IMG/VR virus record: IMGVR_UViG_3300027733_000032 | DNA from: a virus | Strand: one strand, 5' to 3' | DNA length: 64,000 nt | Shown here: positions 33,985 through 34,561 of the stretch, one piece after another | How positions within the stretch are numbered: position 1 is the first letter of the stretch | Layout: every line of letters begins with the position of its first letter | Made by a program: the position numbers and the translations under genes | The notes under the pieces: generated by a model | What the model saw: only the letters and a program-made list of their open reading frames with translations | The model's database searches: none | What the model was told of the DNA's origin: nothing

Positions 33985-34210
33985 ATATACCCGTGATATA
34001 CCCGTGAGCATTGCGACGACTCAATGACTTAGCGATGACGACTTAGTGATGACGACTCAATGACTTGACTGTCAATGATGGTAATGATGACGAGTCAATG
34101 ATGATGACGATATGACGATGACTCAATGCTATTGACGATGACTCAATGACGATGACGATGATGTGATGCTTTGTAATACTTTGTGATACTCAGTAATACT
34201 TTGTGATACC
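33985..34210 (+). repeat. iteron-like direct repeats
   Basis: ATATACCCGTGA x2; GAYGA(C/G)TCAATG x5 (34015-34148); GTAATACTTTGTGATAC x2 (34173, 34193). Confidence 0.75.
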
Positions 34211-34281
34211 TGATAATGAATGTGATGATGAATGGGGCAACGCTGTCAATGTGTACGACATATGTAATGCCGTGTCTTGCT

Positions 34282-34561
34282 TGTGGATAAGGTGTGGATA
34301 AGGGTGTGGATAAACTTTTTTGTCATCCTCTACGACTGTCTATCTTAGGATAAGCAAGGGTTATACACAGGTTTATCAACAGGTATGTGGATAAGTAAGG
34401 GTTATCAACAGGTTGATTAAGGTGGTTATCAACAGGGTTATCAACAGGGTTGGGGATAAAGTAGGGTAAAAAGGGGTTATCAACAAGGGTGTGTATAAAG
34501 TCGGGGCTTCGTCCACATCCGTAGGCACTTATCCACAGGGTTATCAACAGACTTATCCACA
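34282..34561. promoter_or_regulatory. dense DnaA-box cluster, putative replication origin or DnaA sink
   Basis: 6 TTATCCACA, 2 TTATACACA, 6 TTATCAACA, 1 TTATCCCCA in 280 bp, many spaced 11-12 bp. Confidence 0.8.

Follow-up and report, generated by a model that had tools for sequence, protein, structure and literature searches.

A conserved array of DnaA- and LexA-type boxes at the edge of a palindrome-purged early block may form part of a T5-like entry boundary in a family of lake phages

A gene-free gap in a 64,000-nucleotide stretch of viral DNA (IMG/VR record IMGVR_UViG_3300027733_000032; the whole stretch is referred to as the window) carries an array of 15 DnaA-type boxes that is directly followed by four LexA-type palindromes and lies at the right edge of an early block purged of short palindromes. 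We tentatively favour, at a probability of roughly 40%, the reading that this array is the terminal module of an entry-boundary element resembling that of phage T5, which would load host DnaA and LexA. A replication origin, as put forward in the original prediction, is not our primary reading, and a second role of the array in replication is possible. The features on which the argument turns are the following.

155-34700 (34.6 kb): early block purged of short palindromes, with the start of an SNF2 helicase gene as its left end and the gene-free gap as its right end.
33589-34845 (1,257 bp), no strand: gene-free gap, termed the hub, delimited from lists of open reading frames (ORFs) and from homology of the flanking ORFs in the relatives L012 and L004.
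34282-34561, mixed orientation: array of 15 DnaA-type boxes, matching TTATCCACA with at most one mismatch.
34562-34638, no strand: four LexA-type palindromes (C)GAACANNTGTTCG, of the form CGAAC-N4-GTTCG, directly adjoining the last DnaA box.

All 15 DnaA-type 9-mers of the original prediction were recovered at 34282-34561 and match the universal DnaA consensus. Six are perfect TTATCCACA boxes, six are TTATCAACA, two are TTATACACA and one is TTATCCCCA, and they are ordered as three inverted perfect boxes, followed by triads of two weak boxes and a strong one and by a terminal direct group. The predicted phasing at 11-12 bp holds within the sub-groups, where start-to-start gaps measure 11-13 bp (10 of 14 gaps), and breaks down elsewhere, with gaps of 16-56 bp. 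Across the 64-kb window there are 67 TTATCCACA-type 9-mers with at most one mismatch against 16 expected, a count reached by no shuffle. The perfect 9-mer also occurs about 33 times at 398-30765 in early promoter modules, which are conserved and lie some 50 nt upstream of the start codons of small genes. That the array consists of decayed promoter modules was ruled out, since no array box precedes the CCAACTAAC...CCGATA promoter core; reassigned stop codons, considered for the short ORFs of the early block, were dropped because the promoter-cassette structure accounts for them. DnaA-type boxes are also found at the divergence point of early transcription (25014 on the + strand, 25026 and 25066 on the - strand), and these boxes at 25014-25074 have a parallel in T5, whose divergent pre-early promoter region contains boxes at 6045 and 6118.

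Nine other contigs carry the combined DnaA and LexA array in the same layout, making ten with the window: L188 and L189 from IMG/VR and L199, L216, L219, L226, L258, L287 and L292 from metagenomes. Each carries 12-15 DnaA-type boxes, apart from L258, which is cut by its contig start and shows 9. The shared layout begins with two or three inverted perfect boxes, a gap and two or three triads (two TTATCAACA, then one inverted perfect box) and ends with a terminal direct pair, the LexA-type boxes, present in four copies at conserved offsets in every one of the ten contigs, and a conserved palindromic element about 105 bp onward. When the window was aligned with L188 and L189, 75% of the columns in DnaA boxes and 85% of those in LexA boxes were invariant, as opposed to 38% of all others (Fisher p ~1e-12), and the weak variant TTATCAACA was kept as TTATCAACA. 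Because the layout recurs and the boxes are far more invariant than the spacers, the array is, as judged from its sequence, a functional, selected element under purifying selection across the ten contigs. Among other members of the family, L012 carries five perfect boxes and one TTATACACA, and its sister L004 has the same hub and LexA boxes with zero DnaA boxes, and the DnaA module is gained and lost within a conserved frame.

The perfect boxes of the array are identical to the universal DnaA box of actinobacterial oriC, and the palindromes equal the Gram-positive/actinobacterial LexA operator. Since DnaA and LexA consensus sites stand side by side, host proteins are favoured as ligands, and the two most likely bound by the array are host DnaA and LexA. 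No promoter that the four LexA boxes could repress was identified, as there is neither a downstream gene nor a sigma-70-type promoter on either strand. The host itself is likely an actinobacterium, on the basis of the leaderless early promoters, the HA domain and the type of LexA box. For comparison, the dnaA-dnaN gap of a Rubrobacteraceae genome (L092) contains 17 boxes in 370 bp, and that of Aquiluna a perfect box pair 12 bp apart. Scanning genomes for such box pairs brought up many phyla among the matches listed and gives no host assignment. Pairs of TTATCAACA at a distance of 12 bp are also present in nine unrelated IMG/VR contigs (L180-L187, L190), frequently no more than 400 bp from a contig end; by blastn these contigs do not resemble T5. 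In distant relatives a single LexA-type box is located 15-30 bp upstream of a gene encoding an HA-domain and helix-turn-helix (HTH) protein (L021:6212, L033:5886, L035:8475, L019:5806); SOS wiring of this locus is thus a family trait that is placed differently by lineage.

The position of the array coincides with a sharp change in DNA composition. In 1-33588, 4-bp palindromes occur at an observed-to-expected ratio of 0.26 (14.7/kb), compared to 0.79 (46.6/kb) right of the hub, and the left side is poorer in eight of them (AATT, ACGT, CCGG, CGCG, GGCC, TCGA, TGCA and TTAA) by a factor of 6 to 90. A two-rate maximum-likelihood model for these eight palindromes places the change point at 34700 (support 34630-34790), with 1.87/kb to the left and 27.8/kb to the right. 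It falls 60-150 bp beyond the last LexA box; the array constitutes the last ~360 bp of the purged block, and the eight palindromes reappear within ~150 bp right of the array. GATC and AGCT are absent from the whole 64-kb window; L004 and L012 have GATC, and several relatives have AGCT right of the hub only.

The same coincidence is seen in all ten array contigs, which contain no or one forbidden site in up to 2.7 kb upstream of the array; they return in the stretch that separates the last DnaA box from the conserved palindrome, and from +16 onward such sites are frequent. The step is also found at the homologous convergent gap of L004, L012, L026, L021 and L033 and, weaker, in L016, L025 and L035; it is absent from L015, L019 and L020. 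Two relatives are complete, G002 (169.3 kb) and G003 (128.6 kb, closing on a 127-bp overlap), and each has a single purged block (~29 kb and ~14 kb) that the hub borders on one side; on the far side, G002 has an SNF2 helicase gene, as does the phage of the window. The left edge of the block was placed with the help of the relative L042 (SNF2 gene at L042:2259-4268). The window begins 155 bp inside an SNF2-family helicase gene whose start codon coincides with the far edge of the purged block, and in L042 the SNF2 start overlaps the stop of the last small early ORF.

A comparable arrangement is known from the injection-stop region (iss, Repeat Region 3) of T5 and other Tequintaviruses. Like the hub, it is an untranslated, repeat-dense region of about 1.2 kb that closes the first-expressed block, and the T5 record shows the same gene order as found here, with leftward and then rightward pre-early genes, the repeat region and converging genes. 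It contains TTATCCCCA, TTATCAACA, TTATCAACA and TTATCCACA at 9358, 9370, 9419 and 9431, forming pairs 12 bp apart, and hub and T5 region thus share the box variants TTATCCACA, TTATCAACA and TTATCCCCA, in pairs separated by 3 bp. DnaA boxes and variant boxes at the T5 injection stop were described by Davison, with the T5 origins located elsewhere; binding of DnaA was proposed to stop the transfer, and only the first-step DNA of T5 is sensitive to EcoRI and CRISPR (bioRxiv 10.1101/866236). Restriction exposure limited to the DNA before the site is thus experimental in T5, whereas here it is a sequence signature, namely the purge with its change point at 34700. The two systems also differ in scale, with 4 boxes at the site in T5 against 12-15 boxes plus four LexA boxes here, and with a first block of 10 kb in T5 against 34.6 kb in the window and 14-29 kb in relatives. 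T5 belongs to an unrelated phage group, and its host is unrelated to the likely actinobacterial host. By analogy, the hub could be a variant of the T5-type injection-stop region, or of a DnaA-box cluster, in phages unrelated to T5.

A scenario along these lines would be as follows. Confinement of the purge to one contiguous block suggests that this block alone meets restriction unprotected, that is, enters the cell first; it alone would be open to attack by host restriction until phage counter-measures take effect, and the restriction of T5 first-step DNA only supplies the selective logic for a one-block purge. Entry would then pause at the hub, as in the first-step transfer of T5. Strong and weak DnaA boxes together with the four LexA operators would load host DnaA and LexA onto the boundary DNA, which would be the last part of the block to enter or, with opposite polarity, the first. 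The resulting large nucleoprotein complex would hold or anchor the DNA at the boundary and may tie the next step to host replication and to the SOS state. Candidates for the cause of the pause itself are the C-poor repeats, the G-runs, a nick and the protein complex. We consider doubtful the further-reaching proposal that an actinophage family unrelated to T5 evolved stepwise delivery independently, with the oriC-like DnaA/LexA array as a stop or checkpoint at which the replication and SOS state of the host would license entry of the remaining ~80% of the genome.

Several observations weigh against an entry boundary of this kind. Searches with T5 A1, A2 and dmp (tblastn) against the window, G002, G003 and L042 returned no match at E <= 1, so that the likeness to T5 is one of analogy rather than homology. 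The palindrome deficit in T5 first-step DNA is mild (0.84 against ~1.0) compared to 0.26 here. At the left edge of the block the L042 contig runs straight across into the SNF2 gene, and near the hub the contig ends are scattered rather than fixed: many IMG/VR contigs stop there, and a physical terminus was considered as the cause, but with such scatter assembly breakage at repeats is more likely. As regards a long terminal repeat at a fixed genome end, the contigs are neutral. The palindrome boundary is, moreover, kept in relatives without DnaA boxes (L004, L026, L021 and L033), and the boxes are therefore not a universal stop signal; it is more likely that they act as a modulator or anchor than as the stop itself. 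From DNA-binding proteins in the cytoplasm one would expect an inward pull on the DNA and not a stop, and a region-limited DNA modification could equally yield the purge boundary. Terminal repeats, a nick, fixed ends and stepwise entry are for this family conjectures drawn from sequence, and that DnaA acts at the T5 stop site is likewise a hypothesis. In the literature we found no description of a DnaA-box array at a palindrome-purge boundary or of stepwise entry outside T5-like phages.

Apart from the boxes, the hub is made up of repeats. It contains no credible ORF and sits between convergent transcription units, upstream of no gene. A search against Rfam yielded no family and only two sub-threshold snoRNA matches, a scan for sigma-70-type promoters found none in the hub, and blastn of the hub against 50,697 phage records gave zero matches. 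The terminator scan brought up a single candidate, a weak terminator-like hairpin at 33562-33584. The remaining parts of the hub, most of them delimited with TRF, are listed here.

33696-33838, + strand: C-free microsatellite block (TRF), containing (TAGG)12 at 33735-33781 and (AGT)9 at 33811-33838.
33930-33978, + strand: G-run repeat of the GGGGTATA type with at least four G4 tracts (TRF).
33985-34007, + strand: two copies of ATATACCCGTG, containing a doubled ACCCGTG motif (TRF).
34015-34148, + strand: five perfect GAYGASTCAATG repeats ('iterons'), starting at 34015, 34051, 34089, 34117 and 34137.
34162-34211, + strand: CTTTGTRATA, a 10-bp unit present in four copies, with a super-period of 20 bp (TRF, repeat analysis).
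34662-34745, + strand: conserved 3' element, consisting of AACTTTTT at 34662-34669 and palindromic GATAGATTTATCCAAAC at 34729-34745.

The C-free run of 143 nt is the longest of the window, and the left hub has a C content of 11.6%; this C-poor style is kept in L188, L189 and L012 with different repeat units. A relative of ATATACCCGTG, ACCCGTAGGCAC, is present at 33850, and the double unit TACCCGTRG plus CACTTGCGA is found again in the hubs of L012, L004, L188 and L189. The CTTTGTRATA tract is the most AT-rich part of the hub (68-70% AT) and lies 70 bp from the first DnaA box; L188 and L189 have 10-bp GTATCAC/ATCAC repeats in its place. The element formed by AACTTTTT and GATAGATTTATCCAAAC is invariant in the window, L188 and L189 and is present too in L012, L004, L003 and L002. 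A palindromic GATAGATTTATCCAAA occurs three times in the window (34729-34747, 35803-35821 and 37644-37662), with two copies inside genes and with copies at homologous positions in L012 and L004 (8833/8841, 9834, 10571), and may be the operator of a phage regulator. Between its DnaA and LexA boxes, L012 has a 260-bp tract (L012:8190-8450) of 2% A and 52% C with CCTTGCC-type repeats, which mirrors the G-rich, C-poor tract beyond the boxes on their opposite side. The polar motif GACGGTGGYGGAAAG, whose core GGTGGTGG looks like a Chi-type word, has four + strand copies within 2.4 kb right of the hub (34773-34800, 35486-35513, 36464-36491 and 37193-37220), two of them inside coding sequence, and its strand polarity shows no switch at the hub.

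On either side of the hub, and at the nearby replication locus, the following genes were annotated.

31355-32101, + strand: AAA_5 ATPase gene, preceding the phrog_33218 gene.
32098-33588, + strand: last gene of the early block, 496 amino acids, phrog_33218, with its 3' end facing the hub.
34846-35091, - strand: gene for an 81-amino-acid membrane protein, converging on the hub, with a homologous ORF in L012.
35060-35440, - strand: gene for a 126-amino-acid HA-domain plus HTH protein (Pfam HA and HTH matches), with a homologous ORF in L012.
37093-37506, + strand: gene for a 137-amino-acid initiator-like organiser protein (initiator-PHROG match).
37506-37964, + strand: gene for a 152-amino-acid G39P-type helicase loader (profile match to PDB 1no1).

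The two - strand genes that converge on the hub are conserved in relatives. The last two genes of the list correspond to the initiator-like and helicase-loader-like genes that the original prediction had noted downstream. The loader assignment stands, with a match to PDB 1no1 at E 3.7e-6 (14-sequence profile) and to phrog_2289 in 10 of 14 homologues. For the initiator-like protein, in contrast, similarity to 'replication initiation' PHROGs is confined to their C-terminal half (in phrog_16167, positions 170-272 of 315). This protein is 35-64% identical across relatives, and its structural model is a small helical domain (predicted local distance difference test score, pLDDT, 80) with weak fold matches to G39P (1no1, Z 5.3) and DnaD (Z 4.3); Foldseek with this model returned nothing at E <= 0.001, VIA-align gave weak helical matches only, and a search of the protein against viral contigs found nothing. 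Five Pfam families were searched in G002 and G003, and neither genome has a match to polymerase A, polymerase B, Pol III alpha, DnaB-type helicase (DnaB_C) or Prim-Pol. It is thus probable that the family uses the replisome of its host and requires a site at which to load it, and a host-dependent origin must exist somewhere. G002 and G003 appear to depend on the host replisome and to contribute only the G39P-like loader and the small organiser protein themselves.

Against this background it is worth weighing whether the array is a host-DnaA-dependent or host-DnaA-assisted origin, at which DnaA would oligomerise and open nearby DNA and the organiser and G39P-like loader would bring in the host helicase; we regard this as unlikely, if a serious contender, and none of the readings considered here excludes another. 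The cluster of boxes matching a host-type consensus is present, 15 of them in 280 bp, and both this density and the mix of strong and weak boxes equal those of a real actinobacterial oriC. The outer boxes of the array face each other as an inverted pair, as do R1 and R4 in E. coli oriC. A 10-bp repeat that is modestly AT-rich is found at a distance of 70 bp from the first box, the organiser and loader genes are 2.5-2.9 kb away (the loader gene 2.9 kb from the array) in conserved synteny, and the lack of polymerase, DnaB_C and Prim-Pol matches in G002 and G003 means that a host replisome must be recruited. That the initiator-like protein is without the N-terminal half, which is DNA-binding in its PHROG relatives, also speaks for this reading. 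The signatures of DNA opening, however, are missing from the hub. Nearest-neighbour stability in 40-mers, used to look for an AT-rich unwinding element, reaches a hub maximum of -1.16 kcal/step, below the 99th percentile of the window (-1.135), and none of the 15 least stable sites of the window falls in the hub. DnaA-trios form a run of about five 3'-GAT-5' repeats beside the proximal box (PMC8235120), and in 33589-34845 no run of at least five was found on either strand, the best being four TAG at 33819, 460 bp from any box. Cumulative GC skew, the check proposed with the original prediction, has its extremes in G002 and G003 away from the hub, with no turn at the homologous site; within the window skew tracks gene direction and is uninformative, and a turn in strand composition is a weak criterion for phages. 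Genes flanking the hub converge on it, which is terminus-like and not origin-like, and sister L004 has the same hub with zero DnaA boxes. The similar box set of T5 is not an origin (bioRxiv 10.1101/866236). The theta-type replicon of iterons plus DnaA boxes that had been suggested finds little support either. The five GAYGASTCAATG-type repeats are real, all perfect and on the + strand, as is the repeat with a 20-bp period (CTTTGTRATA in four copies), but the 12-bp GAYGASTCAATG units are irregularly spaced (20-38 bp) and were not found in L188 and L189, the closest relatives keeping the array. As these two have no such repeats although the organiser protein is conserved in them, GAYGASTCAATG repeats are not the cognate iterons of that protein, and the Rep candidate nearest to them is this same 137-amino-acid protein, 2.9 kb away, with its partial phrog_16167 match and weak fold matches. 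The original prediction is partly supported, by real boxes at oriC-like density, their conservation, a loader gene nearby and the need for a host-dependent origin.

Other explanations take the binding sites themselves as the function or assign them to a different protein. As a decoy, ~48 DnaA boxes and 8 LexA sites per genome copy would titrate host DnaA and LexA, shutting host initiation, turning down early promoters with DnaA boxes and de-repressing SOS genes. Clustered high-affinity boxes with no gene downstream and four LexA operators without a promoter target would suit such a sink, and with the TTATCCACA box wired into ~25 early promoter modules the availability of DnaA could time early transcription; a sink could, however, sit anywhere in the genome, and neither the exact place of the array at the palindrome boundary in ten contigs nor the strict order and orientation of weak and strong boxes is explained by it, which makes it a less probable account. 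We give even less credence to the idea that the ligand of the 9-mers is a phage protein, possibly an HTH domain delivered with the virion, and that the 9-mers resemble DnaA boxes by coincidence or mimicry. It would accommodate the conservation of TTATCAACA, which departs from the E. coli consensus TT(A/T)TNCACA at its strict C6 (bioRxiv 10.1101/866236), and a 1,661-amino-acid protein encoded at 39745-44730 (- strand) does carry HTH domains. It is at odds with the identity of the perfect boxes to the actinobacterial DnaA box, with the adjoining consensus of a second host factor, LexA, and with the same variants in T5, whose host is unrelated; no homologue of DnaA domain IV was found in the records of five relatives. 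Least probable, and in our view very unlikely, is a transcriptional insulator, in which a protein roadblock would separate the converging early and later transcription units. The array does lie between convergent units that have only the one weak terminator-like hairpin at 33562-33584, but 19 sites and 700 bp of repeats far exceed the needs of a terminator, and the palindrome boundary is left unexplained.

Comparison with known systems leads to a similar picture. The array is like bacterial oriC, here the actinobacterial dnaA-dnaN region, in how densely its TTATCCACA-type boxes are packed, in their spacing of 11-13 bp and in their mixed orientation; unlike oriC, the hub has no AT-rich unwinding element, DnaA-trios or dnaA/dnaN context, and its flanking genes converge rather than diverge. 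With P1 oriR and iteron-based theta replicons it shares short direct repeats beside DnaA boxes and differs from them in that the 12-bp repeats are irregular and unconserved, no Rep gene adjoins and the initiator-like protein is without its DNA-binding half. DnaA-titrating clusters of the datA type also consist of strong boxes that fire no origin and control no adjacent gene, whereas the array belongs to a phage, is fused to LexA operators and has its fixed place at a genome-compartment boundary. The G39P-type loader gene follows the initiator-like gene as gene 39 follows gene 38 in SPP1 (G38P/G39P/G40P); unlike in SPP1, no cognate helicase gene was found here, and the initiator-like protein represents the C-terminal half only. 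The SPP1 origin lies inside gene 38, as opposed to the 2.5 kb that separate the hub from the initiator-like gene.

How injection of T5 DNA halts at 8% of the genome has been an open question for decades. To our knowledge, the only sequence-based proposal for the stop is that its DnaA boxes catch membrane-bound DnaA, and its basis is a single phage group. The T5-like grammar seen here in stronger form, with 12-15 boxes and LexA operators at the edge of a palindrome purge, in an unrelated family of lake phages with genomes of 130-170 kb turns the link between DnaA and the boundary into a recurring, testable pattern. The palindrome change point provides a purely computational signature with which stepwise-entering phage genomes might be found in metagenomes, and in phage annotation an oriC-like cluster of boxes should not by default be called an origin. 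Should the array prove to be an origin instead, it would be an oriC mimic in a large phage without Pfam matches to the polymerase, DnaB-helicase and Prim-Pol families searched. If, on the other hand, stepwise delivery did evolve independently in this family, it would lend comparative support to DnaA boxes as a working part of the T5 stop signal.

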